Shown here: positions 2,091 to 62,608 of the stretch, piece by piece | How positions within the stretch are numbered: the first letter of the stretch is position 1 | Layout of the letters: every line of letters begins with the position of its first letter | Assembly (NCBI GenBank): GCA_041664605.1 | Contig: JBAYKO010000001.1 | Location: 83,586-147,585, forward strand | Length of the DNA stretch: 64,000 nucleotides | Direction of reading: 5' to 3' | Source of the DNA: Minisyncoccota bacterium | GTDB taxonomy: Bacteria; Patescibacteriota; Minisyncoccia; Phycocordibacterales; UBA9973 | The notes under the pieces: generated by a model | Seen by the model: only the letters and a program-made list of their open reading frames with translations | What the model was told of the DNA's origin: nothing | Database searches by the model: none | Program-made: the position numbers and the translations under genes

Positions 2091-3167
2091 ATGGCAAAAG
2101 ACTACTACAAATTATTAGAAATAGAAAAAGGCGCTAATAAAGAAGAAATTAAAAAGGCTTTTCATAAGTTGGCTCACAAGTATCACCCTGATAAAAAGGG
2201 TGGAAATGAGGCCAAATTTAAGGAAATTAACGAGGCTTATCAAATCCTTTCAGATGACAAAAAACGTGCCGAATATGACAGATTTGGGACAACTGGAGGG
2301 GCTTCAGGCTTTCAAGGTGGTGGTTTTGGTGGCTTTCAAGGAGGTTTTGACCAAGGTGGTTTTCAGGACTTTGATTTTGGTAATTTAAACGACATTTTTT
2401 CAGAATTCTTTACTGGTGGAATGGGTAGAGGTAGGGCACAAGAAAGACGAGGTAGGGATATTTCTACCGAACTTAATATTTCTTTCTATGATTCAATTTT
2501 TGGAATAGAGAGAAATATTTTATTAACTAAGGTTTCAAAATGTGAGACTTGCAAAGGAAGTGGAGCTAAAACAGGTACTGATTTAAAAAAATGTTCTACT
2601 TGCAACGGACAAGGAAAAATTCACGAGACAAAAAGATCTTTTCTTGGTTCTTTTTCAACTGTAAAAATTTGTGAAGAGTGTGGAGGTACAGGCACAGTAC
2701 CAGTTGAAAAATGTTCTGATTGTAAAGGCAGTGGAATTGTAAAAAAACAAGAAGATATAAAAATCACAATTCCGGCTGGAATGAGAGATGGAGAAATGAT
2801 TAGAATTACTGGTGAAGGTGAAGCTATTTCAAAAGGTGCATCTGGTGATCTTTATATAAAAATAAATGTTGCGCCACATCCAACTTTCAAAAGAGAAGGG
2901 TCAAATTTGATAATGGATTTAAATTTAAAATTATCTGACGCTTTACTTGGAACAGAATATAAAATAAATACTTTGGACGGCGATATAAAAGTAAGAATCC
3001 CTGAAGGAGTTGGAATTGGAGAAGTTTTGAGAGTTAAAGAAAAAGGAGTGCCTGTTTCAAAAAACAAAAGAGGGGATTTGTTTATTAGGCTTCATATAAA
3101 AATACCAAATAAACTTTCTAAAAAAGCAAAAGAATTAGTTGAAAAAATGAAAGAAGAAGGCATCTAG
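2091..3167 (+). CDS. dnaJ: Chaperone DnaJ
   Basis: J-domain with HPD (AHKYHPDKK), G/F-rich linker, four CxxCxGxG zinc-finger repeats, C-terminal substrate-binding domain. Confidence 0.95.
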   Translation: MAKDYYKLLEIEKGANKEEIKKAFHKLAHKYHPDKKGGNEAKFKEINEAYQILSDDKKRAEYDRFGTTGGASGFQGGGFGGFQGGFDQGGFQDFDFGNLNDIFSEFFTGGMGRGRAQERRGRDISTELNISFYDSIFGIERNILLTKVSKCETCKGSGAKTGTDLKKCSTCNGQGKIHETKRSFLGSFSTVKICEECGGTGTVPVEKCSDCKGSGIVKKQEDIKITIPAGMRDGEMIRITGEGEAISKGASGDLYIKINVAPHPTFKREGSNLIMDLNLKLSDALLGTEYKINTLDGDIKVRIPEGVGIGEVLRVKEKGVPVSKNKRGDLFIRLHIKIPNKLSKKAKELVEKMKEEGI

Positions 3168-3177
3168 GAATTTTTAA

Positions 3178-3218
3178 AAGGTGCGACCTTAAAAGTTTTA
3201 CACCCAAGGTCGTTCCTT
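3178..3218 (+). repeat. 41-nt hairpin element copy 2, 10 nt after dnaJ stop
   Basis: 41/41 identical to copy 1. Confidence 0.7.
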
Positions 3219-3261
3219 AGAAAAATTTCTTTAAAATTATCAAATTTGTTAAAATATGGAC

Positions 3262-9341: not shown

Positions 9342-9842
9342 ATGCTATCGCGGAATTTGAGTATAGAAGACAAAATTTTAAAACTTTTATTTGAGCCAAA
9401 ATATCGATATAAGGGTATGTTTGTCAGTACACTCGGTTTACCAGCCGTTTTTAAAAACAAAAAACAATCTATTACTAATGCTATTTATCGACTAAAGAAA
9501 GAAAATTATATCTTAAAAGAAGATAAGTGTATTCGAATACTTCCTAGGGGGGTAAAATATATTGAGAATAAAAAAAGCCGGCTTTTAATTTTTAATTCAT
9601 TGTATAAAAAAGGAGCACCCAAGAACCTATTAATTATGTTTGATATTCCAGAGATCAAAAAAGCCGAAAGGGAATGGTTTCGTTTTCACTTACGGAAGTT
9701 CGATTATTATATGATTCAAAAAAGCGTTTGGATTGGTCCTTCACCTTTACCGAAAGATTTTTTAGATTATTTAAAAGAAATTAAACTTGAAGAATGTATA
9801 AAAACATTCAAACTAGCCAAATCATTTAATACTCAAACTTAG
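9342..9842 (+). CDS. PadR-like winged-helix N-domain fused to a Cas2-like (VapD/Cas2 fold) C-domain; hypothetical regulator/nuclease
   Basis: The N-terminal about 90 aa resembles PadR-type wHTH. The C-terminal LLIMFDIPE...REWFRFHLRKFDYYMIQKSVW matches the Cas2 beta1 (hhhYDI) and RxxhxKxLxxyGxRhQxSVF signature. Confidence 0.5.
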   Translation: MLSRNLSIEDKILKLLFEPKYRYKGMFVSTLGLPAVFKNKKQSITNAIYRLKKENYILKEDKCIRILPRGVKYIENKKSRLLIFNSLYKKGAPKNLLIMFDIPEIKKAEREWFRFHLRKFDYYMIQKSVWIGPSPLPKDFLDYLKEIKLEECIKTFKLAKSFNTQT

Positions 9843-10501: not shown

Positions 10502-10645
10502 CCCATTAGAAATAGGAAACAATCAAACGACTGTTTGTTTGATTGTTTCCATAGCTTATTAATTGTTTTGATAAATTTATCGATTTCATTTTTTATATAA
10601 TTTTTATTTTAATATCTTAACTGATAGATTTCTAACGGGACTCAT
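10502..10645 (-). repeat. Start-codon-abutting inverted-repeat element, copy D (dnaB-recR spacer)
   Basis: Distal end CATGAGTCCCGTTAGAAATCT (rc of 10625-10645). Proximal end CCTATTTCTAATGGG sits immediately before the recR GTG. Internal sequence is about 80% identical to copy E. Confidence 0.75.
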
Positions 10646-10710: not shown

Positions 10711-12105
10711 CTAGAAGTCTTCTAAACTCATACTACTACTCCCATTCATTGCTGGATTGCTTACATTGGTATTTTTTTCAACTGAAAGGAAACTTGTAGT
10801 TTTTTCATCAAAATAAAGTTCAATTTTTCCAATAGGGCCGTTTCTGTGTTTTTCTACTAGAATTTCTGCGATATTTTGTCTGTCAGAATCTTCTTTAAAT
10901 CTATCCTCTCTGTGAATAAACATAACAACATCGGCATCTTGTTCAATAGATCCAGAATCTCTCAAATCAGAGAGTTTTGGGCGTCCTCCGCGGGTTTCTA
11001 TGGCACGGGAAAGCTGGGATAGGGCAAGAACAGGGACATCAAGTTCACGAGCAAGACCTTTTAGGGATCTTGAAATTTCAGTAATTTGGTTAACCATAGA
11101 ATCATAGTTTTTACTCGTATTCATAAGTTGTAGGTAATCAACGACAATTAATCCAAGCTTATGTTCTAGTTTAAGTTTTCTGGCAATCGAACGCATTCTT
11201 GTTATTGAGTTTGAAGGGAAGTCATCGATAAAAATTGGCGCCTTAGAAAGTCTATCTAAGGAATCTCTTAATTTTTGAAATTCATGATCAGTGGAAAGTC
11301 TTCCCGTTCTTAAATTCCATGCGTTAACATGAGCTTCGGCTGCGAGCATTCTGTCTACTAATTGCTGAGCACTCATTTCAAGAGAAAAAATTCCAACTGG
11401 AATATTATATTTTGTTGCAGCAATACGAGCAATGTCTAGAGCAAGAGTAGTTTTACCAACAGATGGTCTAGCAGCTAAAATTATTAAATCAGAATTTTGG
11501 AAACCGGAAAGGATATTATCAAGATCAGGGAAGCCAGTCGGAACTCCGCGAAGTTTTCCTTTTGACTCATGAAGCATTTCGAGACGCTCCCATGCTTCAG
11601 TTAAAGTTTCTTTTATATTTATAAATTTTTGACTTTTTGGAGATGAAATAACAGAAAATATTTTTTTCTCAGCTAAATCTAAAATCTCATCAATATCGTC
11701 TTCTCCTTCTTTAAAACCAAGTTCAGAAACATAATCAGCAGCCTCTATTAAACTTCTCATTATAAATTTTTTATAAACTGTATCAGCATAATATTTTATA
11801 TTTGTAGATGCAGGAACTGTATTTGTAAGTTCTGTTAAATATGAACTCCCACCGATTTGTTCAAGCTGTTTTTTTTCTTTTAATCTAGTCGAAACAGAAA
11901 GAAGATCAATCGGGTCTCCTTTAGCTGAAAGATCGAGCATAATTTTATAAATATTTTTATGTTTTTCCGCATAAAAAGAATCAGGGAAAATAATATCACT
12001 GATTTCATTTATTGATCCTGGTCGAAGCATAATAGAACCAAGAACGGCTTTTTCAGATTCAATACTTTGAGGAGGAATTCTTAGATTTGATTTTTGCTGA
12101 ACCAT
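10711..12105 (-). CDS. dnaB: Replicative DNA helicase DnaB
   Basis: N-terminal DnaB domain, Walker A (GKTTLALDIARIAA), RecA-like core. 464 aa. Confidence 0.93.
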   Translation of the reverse strand: MVQQKSNLRIPPQSIESEKAVLGSIMLRPGSINEISDIIFPDSFYAEKHKNIYKIMLDLSAKGDPIDLLSVSTRLKEKKQLEQIGGSSYLTELTNTVPASTNIKYYADTVYKKFIMRSLIEAADYVSELGFKEGEDDIDEILDLAEKKIFSVISSPKSQKFINIKETLTEAWERLEMLHESKGKLRGVPTGFPDLDNILSGFQNSDLIILAARPSVGKTTLALDIARIAATKYNIPVGIFSLEMSAQQLVDRMLAAEAHVNAWNLRTGRLSTDHEFQKLRDSLDRLSKAPIFIDDFPSNSITRMRSIARKLKLEHKLGLIVVDYLQLMNTSKNYDSMVNQITEISRSLKGLARELDVPVLALSQLSRAIETRGGRPKLSDLRDSGSIEQDADVVMFIHREDRFKEDSDRQNIAEILVEKHRNGPIGKIELYFDEKTTSFLSVEKNTNVSNPAMNGSSSMSLEDF

Positions 12106-12549: not shown

Positions 12550-12633
12550 TACCTTGGCTATACACATAGAAACCCTCGAGAAATCGGGGGTTTTAATTTT
12601 GGGAATTTAACTCAATTTTGGTATTATAAAAGG

Positions 12634-13638
12634 ATGGAAAACAAAGAAAAAATCGTTTTAACAGGGGATAGGCCAACAGGAAAGCTTCATTTGGGTCATT
12701 ATATTGGCGCCCTTATTCAAAGAGTTGAATTACAAAAGAAATATAAGCAATTTGTTATGGTGGCTGATGTTCAAGCCTTGACCGACAATGCTGATAACCC
12801 AGAAAAAGTTAGAACTAATACTTTTGAAGTTACATTAGACAATCTAGCTGTTGGAGTTGATCCATCAAAGACTACTTTTTTTATTCAATCTCAAATTCCC
12901 GAACTCGCAGAACTTACTGTTTATTTTCTAAATTTAGTAACACTAGCTCGATTAAAAAGAAATCCAACAGTTAAAGATGAAATGAAGCAGAAAGGTTTCG
13001 GTGAAGATGTGCCAGTTGGTTTTTTGTGTTATCCAATTAGCCAGGCATCGGACATTTTGTCTTTCAAAGGAAATTTAGTGCCGGTTGGAGAAGATCAAGT
13101 TCCTGTTATTGAGCAAACAAATGAAATTGCAGAAAAGTTTAATAGTTTTTATGGAGAAGTTTTTCAAAAAGCAGAACCTCTTTTAACAAAAACCTCCCGA
13201 CTTGTTGGCATAGATGGAAAAGGAAAGATGAGTAAATCATTAGACAATGCAATTTATCTAGCTGATTCATCTGAAGTGATTGAAGAAAAAGTTATGTCTA
13301 TGTACACAGACCCAGACCATATAAAAGTAGAAGACCCTGGTAAGATCGAAGGTAATGTTGTTTTCACTTACCTAGATGCATTTGATACAGATAAAAAGGG
13401 ATTGGAAGAGTTAAAAGAAAAATATCAGAAGGGTGGAGTAGGGGACGTTCTAATCAAAAAAAGATTAATTGGGGTACTGCTTGAAATTTTAAATCCGATT
13501 CGCGAAAAAAGAGAATATTTAGAAAAAGATCCAAAGTATGTAATGGATATTTTAGAAGAAGGAACAAAGAAAGCTAGGAAGGTTGTTCAAGATACGCTCA
13601 AGGAAGTAAAACAAGCAATGAAGTTAAATTATTTTTAA
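12634..13638 (+). CDS. trpS: Tryptophanyl-tRNA synthetase
   Basis: HIGH variant (KLHLGHY), KMSKS (KMSKSLDN). About 334 aa, class Ic. Confidence 0.92.
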   Translation: MENKEKIVLTGDRPTGKLHLGHYIGALIQRVELQKKYKQFVMVADVQALTDNADNPEKVRTNTFEVTLDNLAVGVDPSKTTFFIQSQIPELAELTVYFLNLVTLARLKRNPTVKDEMKQKGFGEDVPVGFLCYPISQASDILSFKGNLVPVGEDQVPVIEQTNEIAEKFNSFYGEVFQKAEPLLTKTSRLVGIDGKGKMSKSLDNAIYLADSSEVIEEKVMSMYTDPDHIKVEDPGKIEGNVVFTYLDAFDTDKKGLEELKEKYQKGGVGDVLIKKRLIGVLLEILNPIREKREYLEKDPKYVMDILEEGTKKARKVVQDTLKEVKQAMKLNYF

Positions 13639-14791: not shown

Positions 14792-14935
14792 ATGAGTCCC
14801 GCCCGAAATCAATCAGTTAATATATTTAAATAAAAATTAAAATTACAATGAAATCAATAAATTTTGGAAAACAATCAATAAATTACGGAAATGCCAAAAC
14901 AGCTACTTGTTTAGGCATTTCCTATTTCTAACGGG
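14792..14935 (+). repeat. Start-codon-abutting inverted-repeat element, copy E (upstream ORF-PBP2 spacer)
   Basis: Begins 6 nt after the upstream stop codon with ATGAGTCCCGCCCGAAAT (degenerate distal repeat). Ends CCTATTTCTAACGGG directly before the PBP2 ATG. Internal hairpin GGAAATGCC...GGCATTTCC. Confidence 0.75.
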
Positions 14936-17561: not shown

Positions 17562-17659
17562 ACTTCTGAGGGGAGTTTAGCATATTTAATATAGTTTGTC
17601 AAGTAAAAAATAATCTCAAAATCCTTTTAAATCAGGCCTAAATTTTATATAATAATAAA

Positions 17660-19108
17660 ATGCAAAATAGAATTTATATCAAAGATTTAAAAAAGGAAAT
17701 AGAAAAAGAAGTAATTTTGGCTGGTTGGGTTGATGTTAGACGCGATCAAGGTAAAATGGTTTTCTTTGATATGCGAGATATGACAGGCAAAGTTCAGTGC
17801 GTGGCGTTGCCGAATCGCGAAGAAGTAATTGGGCAGGCCAAGGAAATTCGTCCTGAATGGGTTTTGAAAATTACTGGTTTAGTAAATAAGCGTCCAGATA
17901 AAAATGTTAATCCTGAAATTTTAAATGGTGATATTGAACTTGAAGTTACAAATATTGAAGTATTAAATAAGGCCGAAGCATCACAAGTTGATTTATCTAC
18001 TGACGGATTAGAAATTGGTGAAGAGCATAGATTGAAATATCGATATTTAGATTTACGCCGAGATCGTCTACAAAAAAATATTCGTAACAGACATAAGATT
18101 GCAAAATTTATTCGTGGTTATTTAGACAAAGAAGGTTTTATTGAAATTGAAACTCCAATACTCTCAAAATCTACTGCTGAGGGTGCGAGAGATTTCATTG
18201 TTCCATCTCGTCTTGATCAAGGAAAATTCTATGCGCTTCCACAGGCTCCACAACAATATAAACAACTTCTAATGGCTTCTGGAATGGAAAAATATTTTCA
18301 GTTTGCAAAATGTATGCGTGACGAAGATTTGCGTGGCGACAGACAGCCAGAATTTACTCAACTCGATTTAGAAATGAGCTTTGTTGACCGTGAAGATGTA
18401 ATGAGCTTGAATGAGAAACTTTTAATTGAAATTGTAAAAAATCTTTATCCTGAAAAAGAAATTCAAGAGATTCCATTTCCAAGAATTACATATAAAGATG
18501 CGATTGAAAAATATGGATCTGATAGACCAGATTTAAGAAAAGATCCCGACGGACAAGCTGACGGGACAGGTAAAAATAATAAAAATCTTTTGGCTTTTTG
18601 TTGGGTGATTGATTTTCCATTTTTTGAAAAAGCAAACAAAGATAATAATCCACAAGCAGAAGGGGAATGGACATTTACCCATAATCCGTTTTCTGCAGCT
18701 CAACCGCAATTTCATGATGATTTATTAAATAAGAAAAATATTCCGGAAATTCTTACTGACCAATATGATATTATAATGAATGGTAATGAATTAGGCGGTG
18801 GTTCAATTCGAAATCATAAACCCGAAGCTCTTTTGGCAGTTTATGACATCATGGGAGTAAAAAGAGAAGAAGTTGAAAAAAATCTTTTCTATATGTTAGA
18901 AGCATTCAGGTCAGGAACTCCACCACATGGCGGAATTGCATGGGGTTTTGATCGATTTGTAATGTTACTTGAAAATGAACCAAACATTCGCGAGGTGATG
19001 GCTTTCCCAAAAAATGGAGAAGGAAAAGACTTGATGATGGATTCACCAAATGAAATTTCTGAAAAAAATCTTAAGGAATTAGGAATTAAATTAGATATAA
19101 ATAAGTAG
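17660..19108 (+). CDS. aspS: Aspartyl-tRNA synthetase (class IIb), bacterial type lacking the GAD insertion domain
   Basis: OB anticodon-binding fold; motif 1/2/3 region (FRDEDLRGDRQPEFTQLDLEMSF; GGGSIRNH; GFDRFVMLL); LPQAPQQYKQLLM. YGSDRPDLR is followed by only about 25 aa before WVIDFPFFE, where the bacterial GAD domain normally sits. Confidence 0.85.
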   Translation: MQNRIYIKDLKKEIEKEVILAGWVDVRRDQGKMVFFDMRDMTGKVQCVALPNREEVIGQAKEIRPEWVLKITGLVNKRPDKNVNPEILNGDIELEVTNIEVLNKAEASQVDLSTDGLEIGEEHRLKYRYLDLRRDRLQKNIRNRHKIAKFIRGYLDKEGFIEIETPILSKSTAEGARDFIVPSRLDQGKFYALPQAPQQYKQLLMASGMEKYFQFAKCMRDEDLRGDRQPEFTQLDLEMSFVDREDVMSLNEKLLIEIVKNLYPEKEIQEIPFPRITYKDAIEKYGSDRPDLRKDPDGQADGTGKNNKNLLAFCWVIDFPFFEKANKDNNPQAEGEWTFTHNPFSAAQPQFHDDLLNKKNIPEILTDQYDIIMNGNELGGGSIRNHKPEALLAVYDIMGVKREEVEKNLFYMLEAFRSGTPPHGGIAWGFDRFVMLLENEPNIREVMAFPKNGEGKDLMMDSPNEISEKNLKELGIKLDINK

Positions 19109-31889: not shown

Positions 31890-32015
31890 CCCATTAGAAG
31901 TAGATCGCGATCAATTCACGCATCTGGTTAATTAGGTTATTAATATTTATTATATTTGATTTCATAATTATTGTTTATTGTTTAAATTGCGATCGCGACT
32001 TCTAACGGGATTCAT
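31890..32015 (-). repeat. Start-codon-abutting inverted-repeat element, copy C (ctpA-rplI intercistronic spacer)
   Basis: Distal ATGAATCCCGTTAGAAGTCGCGATCGC and proximal GATCGCGATCTACTTCTAATGGG give an extended inverted repeat of about 25 nt including GATCGCGATC palindromes. It abuts the rplI ATG and begins 10 nt after the ctpA stop. Confidence 0.75.
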
Positions 32016-35099: not shown

Positions 35100-35660
35100 T
35101 TAGTAATAATATCCTCCCTTTACTTTAAATTTCTTTTTATCAAAAGTTACTACCATATACCAGTTCCAGGATACGGTCTTATCATCTTTTCCCACGAAAT
35201 CAAACCATATTCTTGGAAATATTTCTTTATTAATCCACCTTTCTGGTTCTTCTGACGCAGGATCGACAATAATTATATTTTTATCAGTTACATTTACAAC
35301 AACACTATAATGATCATCATTTTCATCAAACCAACCAATAATAACCGGTAATTTTTCTTCACGAATAAAATATTCCAATTCTTCTATTGATCCGTTTTCT
35401 TTTACATAAACAAAGCCACCAATTTCTTTTATGGCCTGGATCATTCCTTCATGCTCTGTCCCCTCACCTCTTCCCATTCCTGAAATACTACAAGCAACAT
35501 TAGCTAACTGTTCTTCTGTGTGATTTTTACCAAAATATGAAAGTAAAATTTTTAAAGAGGCTGGACCACAAAGTCCCATTGATTGTTGAAAAGGTTCCAC
35601 TTTAATTTTCTGCTCATCTCTGTTTACTGTATTTAATTTTTTCTTTTTCTTCCACATCAT
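35100..35660 (-). CDS. Papain-like cysteine peptidase, C39-like (Peptidase_C39_2-type) domain protein
   Basis: Catalytic Cys in GLCGPASLKILLSYFG and His in DDHYSVVVNV, with Asp/Asn downstream. Confidence 0.6.
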   Translation of the reverse strand: MMWKKKKKLNTVNRDEQKIKVEPFQQSMGLCGPASLKILLSYFGKNHTEEQLANVACSISGMGRGEGTEHEGMIQAIKEIGGFVYVKENGSIEELEYFIREEKLPVIIGWFDENDDHYSVVVNVTDKNIIIVDPASEEPERWINKEIFPRIWFDFVGKDDKTVSWNWYMVVTFDKKKFKVKGGYYY

Positions 35661-35763
35661 CCCATTAGAAATAGTTTATTTAAAACAAACTATATTTTTA
35701 CTCTGATAATTTAATCGCCTTTATTTTTAAAATTTTATTCCGCTAATTTCTAACGGGACAAGT
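35661..35763 (-). repeat. Start-codon-abutting inverted-repeat element, copy B (upstream of C39-like peptidase)
   Basis: Distal CTTGTCCCGTTAGAAATTAG (lacks the ATG). Proximal hairpin ATAGTTT...AAACTAT followed by TTTCTAATGGG then ATGATG. Confidence 0.7.
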
Positions 35764-35838: not shown

Positions 35839-36534
35839 CTACTTTTTATCTCTACTCAGATTATTTAAAAATTTAGTACGGGATAAATATTTTTTAATTA
35901 TTTGATCACCCCTCAAGTTTACCCAAGAATATTTCGCGTCTCCAGGATAAGCCCCGCCATGTTCTCTTCTTGTCTGTCTTTCTTTAGCCGAAGCAAAATC
36001 ATGCGCTGAATCATAAATCATCCCCTTTTTCATTAAATCTCTTTCATGTTGTTCATGAACTAATGTAAAAAATTTATCTTTCTCTCCTAAGCAGTTGTCC
36101 AACCAAATCTCATTTTGGGGAATATATTTATAAACATAATGATGGCCACCCATAACAAATTGTGGGTCTATATATTGTCTAATAATTGAACCTTCAACAT
36201 AACAAACTTTTAAACCTTCTATATTTTTTGTTCTTATATAAAAATTTGGTATTAGTCCTTTTTTACATAAAACTTTTTTTAAAAATTTACGGACATCTTT
36301 TACATTTTTACAACTCTTGGGAACTTTAGTATTTTTTAGTTTTATGAAAAAATCTAATTCTTCTTTAAAACAATAATCAAACCAAAATTTATTTTGAGGA
36401 ATATAAAATTTTGGATCATAAAAATCAGCTGGAGAATTTGTATATTCGTAAAAAACAGAAAAATCGTCATCTAGTGTTTGACGAATTAAAGCCCCATCCA
36501 CAAAGACTATATTTTCAATAGGTTTTTTCTGCAT
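35839..36534 (-). CDS. Hypothetical protein with internal tandem duplication (two about 60-aa repeats, YIPQNxxWxDxC motif)
   Basis: VFVDGALIRQTLD...FYIPQNKFWFDYC and CYVEGSIIRQYID...KYIPQNEIWLDNC align. His-rich HEQHERD segment. Confidence 0.5.
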   Translation of the reverse strand: MQKKPIENIVFVDGALIRQTLDDDFSVFYEYTNSPADFYDPKFYIPQNKFWFDYCFKEELDFFIKLKNTKVPKSCKNVKDVRKFLKKVLCKKGLIPNFYIRTKNIEGLKVCYVEGSIIRQYIDPQFVMGGHHYVYKYIPQNEIWLDNCLGEKDKFFTLVHEQHERDLMKKGMIYDSAHDFASAKERQTRREHGGAYPGDAKYSWVNLRGDQIIKKYLSRTKFLNNLSRDKK

Positions 36535-62102: not shown

Positions 62103-62555
62103 TTAATTTAATAAAGCATCGACAATTTCTTTAATAATTTGCCCATCTGCCTTCCCTTTTAAATCTTTCATAACCCCCGCCATTAACATCCCGGCTTTAC
62201 TTTTATCTGTAATACCAAGCTCTTCTTTTTTGGCTTTTATAATTTTTTCAACTTCATCACGATTCATCATTTCTGGTAAATATTTTTCAAGATATGGAAG
62301 TTCATCTCTCTCTTTCTCTGCCAAATCTTCACGGTTCCCTTTTGTGAATTGTTCTATTGAATCTTTTCTTTGTTTTACTAATCTTGAAATAACGGGAATC
62401 GCTTCTTCATCAGAAAGCTCCTCGCTTGGCTTTCTTTTTTTGGCTACGAGCTCGTTTGTAAATGATGATAAGATATTTCTTAAAACCTCTAATCGCAAAG
62501 ATTCCTTTTTTATCATTGCATCTTTTATTTCGTCTCTTATTTGTTGGTGTAACAT
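62103..62555 (-). CDS. GatB/YqeY-domain protein
   Basis: IRDEIKDAMIKKESLRLEVLRNIL...YLPEMMNRDEVEKII, YqeY family. Confidence 0.8.
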   Translation of the reverse strand: MLHQQIRDEIKDAMIKKESLRLEVLRNILSSFTNELVAKKRKPSEELSDEEAIPVISRLVKQRKDSIEQFTKGNREDLAEKERDELPYLEKYLPEMMNRDEVEKIIKAKKEELGITDKSKAGMLMAGVMKDLKGKADGQIIKEIVDALLN

Positions 62556-62608
62556 AATTTTATTATAGCATGAATTATTTATTTATAATTTTTCCCTTTT
62601 TATAAAAG

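Follow-up and report, generated by a model that had tools for sequence, protein, structure and literature searches.

A start-codon-restoring palindromic element of Patescibacteria and its uORF-less subtype before a C39 peptidase gene

The stretch of DNA analysed here (the window, 64 kb in all) carries on its minus strand a gene for a C39-family cysteine peptidase, and directly before its start codon lies a palindromic element of 103 nt, copy B (Table 1). The sequence-only reading had placed this element at 35661-35763, and these are its exact limits. The same reading took it for the shortest copy, with the distal ATG missing; the minus-strand sequence and a comparison of the five window copies bear this out, as the other four are 125-144 nt long and copy B alone has no distal ATG. 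On the minus strand the region reads ...AAATTT ACTTGT CCCGTTAGAAAT TAGCGGAATAAAATTTTAAAAATAAAGGCGATTAAATTATCAGAGTAAAAAT ATAGTTTGTTTTAAATAAACTAT TTCTAATGGG ATGATGTGG, and its skeleton is ACTTGT-CCCGTTAGAAAT-(73 nt)-ATTTCTAATGGG-ATGATG. The arms pair at 12 of 12 positions, counting one G:T; the T of that wobble also generates an ATG, at 35665-35663. The hairpin ATAGTTT...AAACTAT followed by ATGATG, noticed earlier, is present as described. Within it, TAAACT ends 13 nt before the gene ATG and 7 nt before the arm-internal ATG; the ATG of dnaB, at 12105, is also preceded by TAAACT and 6 nt. The predicted stem of copy B has about 21 bp (-26.4 kcal/mol, z = -3.9; 1 of 200 shuffles was as good) and extends over AUGAUGUGG; in the predicted fold, UUGU of ACTTGT can pair with AUGA of the start region via G.U wobbles.

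Table 1. Elements of the window and component parts of copy B with its neighbouring genes
Feature	Position	Strand	Remarks
c1, class I, before recR (GTG start)	10502..10645	-	uORF1 10645-10604; uORF2 10589-10506
c2, class I, before a PBP2/FtsI-type gene	14792..14935	+	uORF1 14792-14833; uORF2 14848-14931
c3, class I, before rplI (L9)	31890..32015	-	uORF1 32015-31968; uORF2 31965-31894
c5, class I, before a class-I release factor gene	42317..42441	-	uORF1 42441-42394
231-aa gene upstream of the C39 gene, no Pfam match	35839..36534	-	synteny kept in element-less relatives
Copy B: ACTTGT, class II 5' signature	35758..35763	-	occupies the register of the class I duplicated ATGNN+Y
Copy B: distal arm CCCGTTAGAAAT	35746..35757	-	arm of the inverted repeat
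Copy B: UAGCGG	35740..35745	-	read from the sequence; possible local pairing with distal-arm CCGUUA
Copy B: local hairpin ATAGTTT-N9-AAACTAT	35671..35693	-	2-nt overlap with proximal arm
Copy B: TAAACT, -10-like hexamer (TANNNT)	35673..35678	-	candidate internal promoter
Copy B: proximal arm ATTTCTAATGGG	35661..35672	-	T at 35664 forms the G:T (G.U) wobble with the distal arm
Copy B: mini reading frame AUG GGA UGA	35657..35665	-	stop overlaps both in-frame gene starts (AUGAUG)
Start codon of the C39 gene	35658-35660	-	A at 35660 is the terminal purine of the inverted repeat
C39-family cysteine peptidase gene	35100..35660	-	Pfam PF03412, 7e-15

Copy B is one of five. With one mismatch allowed, the arm motif TTTCTAAYGGGA matches the window 9 times, against 1.36 expected, a count that none of 100 shuffles reached; the matches resolve into five elements, c1, c2, c3, B and c5. 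A profile search of the window found no sixth copy; an nhmmer candidate at 44877-44947 was rejected as a terminator hairpin only. All five adjoin a true gene start and lie in one orientation relative to the gene. Pfam profile coordinates back the downstream starts: residues 1-46 of L9 correspond to profile positions 1-46, and RecR begins at its HhH domain. The copies have diverged, with pairwise identity of at most about 75%. Upstream open reading frames (uORFs) come two in succession in c1, c2 and c3: the first has 13-15 codons and starts at the duplicated ATG, and the second has 23-27 codons (MKSIN...SYF) and ends 4 nt before the gene, in c1 at the TAA of the arm, 4 nt before the recR GTG. 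Copy c5 has a first uORF and an internal ATG, at 42409, in frame with the release factor gene. An ORF finder lengthens that gene (41342-42409, -) by 31 codons into c5; a 172-aa L9 call (P0123, locus L246) has a similar N-terminal extension, from a TTG. The distal arm of c2 is degenerate (CCCGCCCGAAAT, 14798-14809, +), which breaks the long stem; its uORF still encodes MSPARN, a change from AGA to CGA being synonymous.

Other features of the window were noted as well. An 89-nt repeat, 84% identical, directly follows the stops of dnaK and dnaJ (1011-1099 and 3140-3228, +); it is a long hairpin (GCGACCTT-N15-AAGGTCG inside AATTTTT.../...AAAAATT; z = -6.9 and -3.7) whose Rfam matches all fall below the gathering score; a role as heat-shock operator or as 3' stabiliser is conceivable. 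At about 28200-28900 gene orientation turns from plus to minus and the cumulative GC skew peaks, positive before and negative after; the place looks like a replication terminus. An ORF of 166 aa (9342-9842, +) matches the PaaX central/Cas2-like domain (2e-12), with no CRISPR array in view.

The family reaches far beyond this genome, which is one of Candidatus Paceibacterota, and nearly all its members lie at the very beginning of genes. An exact CTATTTCTAAYGGGRTG query over 185,579 species genomes gave at least 119 loci. Among the matches listed, all loci with a paired distal arm belong to Patescibacteria (CPR), with GC contents of 28-60% and hosts that include Saccharibacteria, Paceibacteria, Kaiser-, Nomura-, Zambryski- and Doudnabacteria; the few matches in non-CPR genomes have no distal arm. 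A scan of IMG/VR for phage carriage returned 11 matches, all lacking the distal arm and therefore chance matches, with no sign of carriage by phage. The element ends read YCCCGTTAGA...TCTAACGGGR, as terminal inverted repeats with arms of 12-13 bp, and the arm core CCCGTTAGA is near-invariant in 86 class I and 69 class II copies. Copies measure 27-200 nt and number 5 in the 64 kb here and 2-3 per 8-kb locus elsewhere; many of the family counts take in related copies and so do not represent independent events. The downstream genes are mutually unrelated, with 125 Pfam families among 109 proteins, and an explanation as a regulon was rejected on that ground. The family is apparently undescribed so far: Rfam gave no match for copy B at E <= 10 and none at gathering score in the window or in 13 other element-bearing loci, and a literature search (on the element sequence, and on MITEs, leaderless genes and palindromic elements of CPR) yielded nothing relevant.

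What happens at the insertion site can be read from 113 start-adjacent copies in many CPR genomes. The base pair just outside the arms is T:A in 93, C:G in 18 and mismatched in 2 (111/113 paired). A terminal A goes with an ATG start and a terminal G with a GTG start, so the palindrome ends on the very base that opens the start codon. The free positions of the distal ATGNN equal gene bases 4-5 in 83-84% of the 113 copies; permuted pairs match at means of 49% and 60%, with maxima of 58% and 71% in 1000 permutations. Class I makes a 4-bp target duplication, TGNN, which copies the gene's start codon upstream, and the element's own last purine (A or G) rebuilds the downstream ATG or GTG, as in ATGCG-T...A-TGCGC, ATGGA-T...A-TGGAT and ATGTA-T...A-TGTAC. 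Duplications outside start codons were also found (CGGA, TCAA, TTTA, CATG, CTTG).

Empty sites in relatives tell the same story at L9: the window has the stop TAA, 9 nt and ATGAA-T[element]A-TGAAAGT; a relative (locus L245) has TAA-N10-ATGAAAGT, unduplicated; and relatives show the S41-peptidase stop followed by 10-13 nt and ATGAAAGT or ATGCGAGT. At the C39 locus, the relatives (orthologues 81, 73 and 69% identical) retain the gene upstream and lack the element, with intergenic gaps of 62, -10 and 42 nt, respectively, against 178 nt in the window. The empty-site relatives stand at 60-81% protein identity; therefore, the comparison is between species, not strains. Copy B, where the hexamer is replaced, had led to the claim that ATGAGT belongs to the element. 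That claim fails, as the distal ATGNN copies gene bases in the 113 copies and the L9 empty site carries no duplicate; taken together, these show that the hexamer consists of an A, the 4-bp duplication and the element's first base. Copy B is no counter-example: it belongs to another subfamily, in which A-CTTG-T stands for A-TGNN-T in the same register.

This second subfamily, class II, is large, and copy B is a regular member of it. CTTG[TC]CCCG flanks recur among the genome loci, and the exact ACTTGTCCCGTTAGAAAT end is found in at least 119 metagenome contigs; about 105-110 of the matches listed are elements before an ATG. Assembly error at the distal end, named beforehand as what would refute the earlier observation, is excluded by the recurrence of this end in so many independent contigs. 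Further marks go with it. Arm position 4 forms a G:T wobble (TAATGGG) in 59/69 class II copies versus 5/86 of class I, and a TANNNT box, mostly TAAAAT, ends at -9 to -11 from the gene ATG in 50/62 versus 3/85; the TAAACT of copy B ends at -13, 2 nt further upstream than in most members. At the position of UAGCGG in copy B most class II copies have AACGGG or AAUGGG; judged from the letters, pairing of UAGCGG with CCGUUA could compete with the long-range stem. The recurrent end and these marks together make copy B a regular subfamily member, neither degenerate nor an assembly error. There is no enrichment of uORFs in class II (4/62 sense, 6/62 antisense), and in copy B the only candidate for a leader-peptide or uORF device is the two-codon AUG GGA UGA. 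The earlier view that the inverted repeat can stand without the start of the upstream ORF is supported by copy B and by the class II copies at large. One of these (L025:5096-5204), with no uORF, sits in a ribosomal protein operon and separates the rplP (L16) stop codon from the rpmC (L29) start.

No target duplication accompanies the class II end. None appeared in shifted registers or outside CTTGT, on a model of extended terminal inverted repeats, and copy B itself has no direct repeat (CTTG on the left, TGAT on the right). A few short copies have CTTG on both sides. The C39 empty sites contain no CTTG; therefore, the tetranucleotide arrived with the element and was not part of the target. 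IS91-type targeting of CTTG/GTTC was rejected for class II, with empty sites devoid of CTTG and class I flanks wrongly oriented. In 14/69 class II copies the end of a native -10 box lies 7 nt upstream of the A in ACTTGT, a spacing at which the old promoter would start its transcript at that A. For class II the predicted fold of the sense strand is the more stable one, by -3.2 kcal/mol (p = 3e-9); class I shows no such asymmetry (p = 0.38) and, as it folds equally well on both strands, its palindrome may act at the DNA level. Selection on the RNA is not provable from the class I test.

Shine-Dalgarno (SD) motifs are nearly absent from the window genome, and in most window genes the ATG follows a TATAAT-like box at 6-8 nt (for example at 12612-12636, 17638-17662 and 62555-62577). 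In relatives of higher GC content, TANNNT ends 7-10 nt before the distal ATG in 26/65 copies; in most of the remaining copies the stop codon of the preceding gene lies within a few bases, and there are essentially no SD motifs. These features indicate, as far as sequence can, that the window genome uses leaderless mRNAs, with coupled translation within operons. TATTTC of the class I arms was discounted as a promoter, its critical last position being C.

In class I, uORFs are far more frequent on the sense strand than on the antisense strand. Counting ATG-initiated frames of at least 10 codons in distinct class I copies, with the antisense strand, identical in arms and composition, as control, a uORF ends at the arm TAA (TTC-TAA-CGGG-ATG), 4 nt before the gene, in 63/112 copies sense versus 6/112 antisense. 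Counting all forms of coupling (a stop at the arm TAA, an ATGA overlap or read-through in frame) gives 87 sense versus 28 antisense of 112. Among copies with L mod 3 = 1, whose length puts the duplicated ATG in frame with the arm TAA, 79% have an open uORF frame, versus 0-9% for the other frames, and the sense/antisense contrast holds after stratification by interior GC. In many class I copies an in-frame ATG lies inside the element, 22-27 codons ahead of the arm TAA, and some of these ATGs lie 7 nt after an extended -10 box, as in TGGTACAAT-N7-ATG. The reading frame runs on through short copies (27-84 nt, each a multiple of 3 in length), which place ..PVRN...ISNG.. at protein N-termini. Mini-copies (27-48 nt) are embedded in frame in N-terminal coding sequence (L084:2953-3013; L069, minus strand, about 3573 in reverse coordinates; L067:2521-2553); a mnmA-like gene reading MNPIRN...ISNG-ARIFVGLSGGVDS is an example and resembles Rickettsia palindromic elements. 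The class I bulge and arm also form UCCU-AUUUCUAA, 16 nt before the gene start (e.g. L087:2200-2216), which resembles the 3' tail of Firmicutes 16S rRNA (CCUCCUUUCUAA).

The best way to bring these observations together, to which we give a probability of about 0.6, is to regard copy B as a lineage-specific insertion of a MITE-like, start-codon-restoring element, with class II as its uORF-less, promoter-bearing subtype. Terminal inverted repeats, small size, lack of a transposase gene, multiple copies and presence or absence at orthologous sites are all found, as in MITEs; the fixed-length target duplication of MITEs is found in class I and is lacking in copy B and class II. A Pfam survey of 50 window proteins revealed no transposase or recombinase. 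In 1.69 Mb of fetched loci there are no long pairs of terminal inverted repeats that would mark an autonomous partner; orphan arms 0.3-4 kb apart are unrelated pairs. The window copies are diverged and orthologous filled sites are conserved better than their own flanks, also across species, so the elements are old and probably kept by selection; with window copies as old as that, at most about 75% identical, any present-day mobility is putative.

In a leaderless setting, insertion at +2..+5 would keep a 5'-terminal AUG. Ribosomes would then load on that AUG in class I copies, translate the uORF or uORFs, melt the hairpin and re-initiate at the gene; we infer that ribosomes use this relay path. 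Only insertions on start codons would survive in class I. For copy B, transcripts from the old upstream promoter would fold, and the ~21-bp stem would bury AUGAUGUGG, giving an off or low state; its own TAAACT box could give rise to a near-leaderless mRNA with 1-6 nt ahead of the start codon, with initiation possibly by way of the overlapping start-stop AUG-GGA-UGA-UG. Copy B would then be a portable 5' end (leader and promoter) of the C39 peptidase gene, not a decayed copy. Some details sit less easily with this: measured against the usual spacing, the transcription start predicted for class II lies 2-4 nt too far from the gene ATG and, from the arm ATG, 1-3 nt too near; AT-rich DNA abounds in TANNNT; and the AUG-GGA-UGA layout depends on an A following the ATG, a base present in only 30/69 class II copies.

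A bolder perspective, tentative and on balance doubtful, supposes that the elements act across the phylum as a self-compensating portable 5' end, which specifically invades +2..+5 of leaderless genes and puts a large share of the core genes under common post-transcriptional control. The insertion machinery might, for example, target the open promoter complex, with the start codon rebuilt; a factor might bind or cut the invariant CCCGUUAGA/UCUAACGGG stem, or ribosomes might relay or shunt across it. Class I, with its uORF relay, and class II, with its own promoter and start-codon mask, would be two solutions to translation without SD sites.

Another perspective denies mobility: the element would be a vertically inherited cis-regulatory RNA leader, a hairpin responsive to a protein, a metabolite or temperature, the arms being the site of a conserved CPR factor or of RNase III and the local hairpin a switch. 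The arm core, invariant across 28 to 60% GC, the constant orientation relative to the gene and the conservation of orthologous copies above their flanks all accord with this, as do a second helix (helix 2) with compensatory pairs and a fixed 4-nt YYCT bulge, wobbles in helix 2 that favour the sense strand (about 30 versus 14 antisense, counts that are not independent), an internal CGGG, present in most class II copies, with which the distal arm could pair, and the better sense-strand folding of class II. That asymmetry, however, is largely due to one inherited G:T position, and class I has none; moreover, close relatives have empty sites at both loci tested (C39 and L9), the 4-bp direct repeat copies each gene's own bases, the downstream genes come from 125 unrelated families and Rfam has no match. 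An immobile leader is thus unlikely; it is a rival only in being not mobile, and a regulatory role gained after insertion is compatible with the preferred reading, the insertion of a start-codon-restoring element.

Transposition might instead proceed through single-stranded hairpins, as with REPIN/RAYT or IS200/IS605-PATE elements, with a Y1 HUH transposase and CTTG as flanking recognition tetranucleotide. The hairpin is long and near-perfect, with a fixed bulge, beyond what a transposase-binding terminal repeat needs; in class II one flank bears an unvarying tetranucleotide and the target is not duplicated; and hairpin doublets of 60-120 nt are typical of REPINs. Yet class I makes a clear 4-bp duplication, where HUH 'peel and paste', as known from IS608, makes none; the window holds no Y1 transposase gene; and the C39 empty sites have no CTTG to be recognized. 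We consider this route quite improbable.

That copy B is a decaying class I copy, its duplicated ATG mutated away, is very unlikely: other copies do show point-mutated distal starts (ATA, ACG, ATT), but ACTTGT and ATGNNT disagree at three or more positions, more than 100 independent loci carry ACTTGT unchanged, and with it go the G:T wobble, the -10-like box and a complete lack of uORFs. An inverton, a promoter switch whose repeats are invertase sites, would account for inverted repeats of 12-22 bp around some 70-100 bp of AT-rich DNA with -10-like boxes, and for many copies per genome with common repeats, as in the Mpi regulon of Bacteroides; it is scarcely credible, as every start-adjacent copy with recognisable interior markers, in independent assemblies, has one interior orientation, with the YYCT bulge and the TAA-terminated uORF always on the gene side, inversion leaves the start-codon direct repeat unexplained and no recombinase gene is found in the window. 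An assembly or sequencing artefact at the distal end of copy B, for which no supporting evidence was found, can be dismissed on the presence of the 18-mer end in at least 119 contigs from many unrelated metagenomes.

If a start-codon-restoring element is indeed at work, several percent of genes in minimal CPR genomes bear one inserted 5' end; in the window it is 5 of about 65 genes, among them those for RecR, a PBP, L9 and a release factor. A mobile element can then occupy a gene's most sensitive base without doing harm. Annotation of CPR genomes is affected, as gene callers extend or truncate element-bearing ORFs (the 42409 start and P0123 above), and there is a bearing on how translation starts in bacteria apparently without SD sites. 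The link between a family of MITEs or palindromic elements and leaderless translation is an unusual one, and for cultivable Saccharibacteria it leads to predictions: of transcription start sites, of ribosome footprints on uORFs and of a factor that binds the stem.

Among known systems, the Correia elements of Neisseria (CREE/NEMIS) come close. These are MITEs of 100-150 bp, multicopy, with a hairpin of terminal inverted repeats and a short duplication; they often lie just upstream of genes, are co-transcribed with them and can carry promoters. The start-codon element is like them in its 100-150 bp of non-coding sequence, terminal inverted repeats, short target duplication and many copies. It differs in duplicating TGNN rather than TA, in lying in a single orientation where Correia elements lie in either and at varied distance, in rebuilding the start with its own last base, in the relay uORFs of class I and in a host range that spans a superphylum rather than one genus. 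Rickettsia palindromic elements (RPEs) are likewise small palindromes tolerated in or at genes of reduced genomes, and the short start-codon elements are read in frame much as RPEs are translated; RPEs, however, occupy many coding positions, whereas the start-codon elements sit on the start codon and are mostly not translated into protein. REP sequences and REPINs, with their RAYT, share the hairpin of inverted doublets, about 100 nt long, highly repeated and non-coding; unlike the start-codon element, they lie mostly at 3' ends between convergent or co-directional genes, have a conserved GTAG and make no target duplication, where class I makes one and class II does not. Integron attC sites were also considered and rejected: boxes like GTTAGAA/TTCTAAC are present in the opposite order (GTTAGA first) to R''(RYYYAAC)...R'(GTTRRRY), and the element stands at the 5' ends of core genes, not at the 3' end of cassettes.

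Functional parallels can be drawn as well. Like mobile promoters, class II has a -10-like box at a fixed gene-proximal place before unrelated genes; unlike them, it has a hairpin that occludes the start codon and exact start-codon junctions, its promoter activity being putative. Termination-reinitiation or 70S scanning from uORFs, and uAUGs at the 5' terminus, resemble class I in the stop that lies 4 nt before the start or overlaps it (ATGA, UGAUG), in the lack of an SD site before the gene and in a first uORF at the predicted 5' end of the transcript. Where uORF coupling is known from single operons, the device here is carried by a repeated insertion and created by target duplication.
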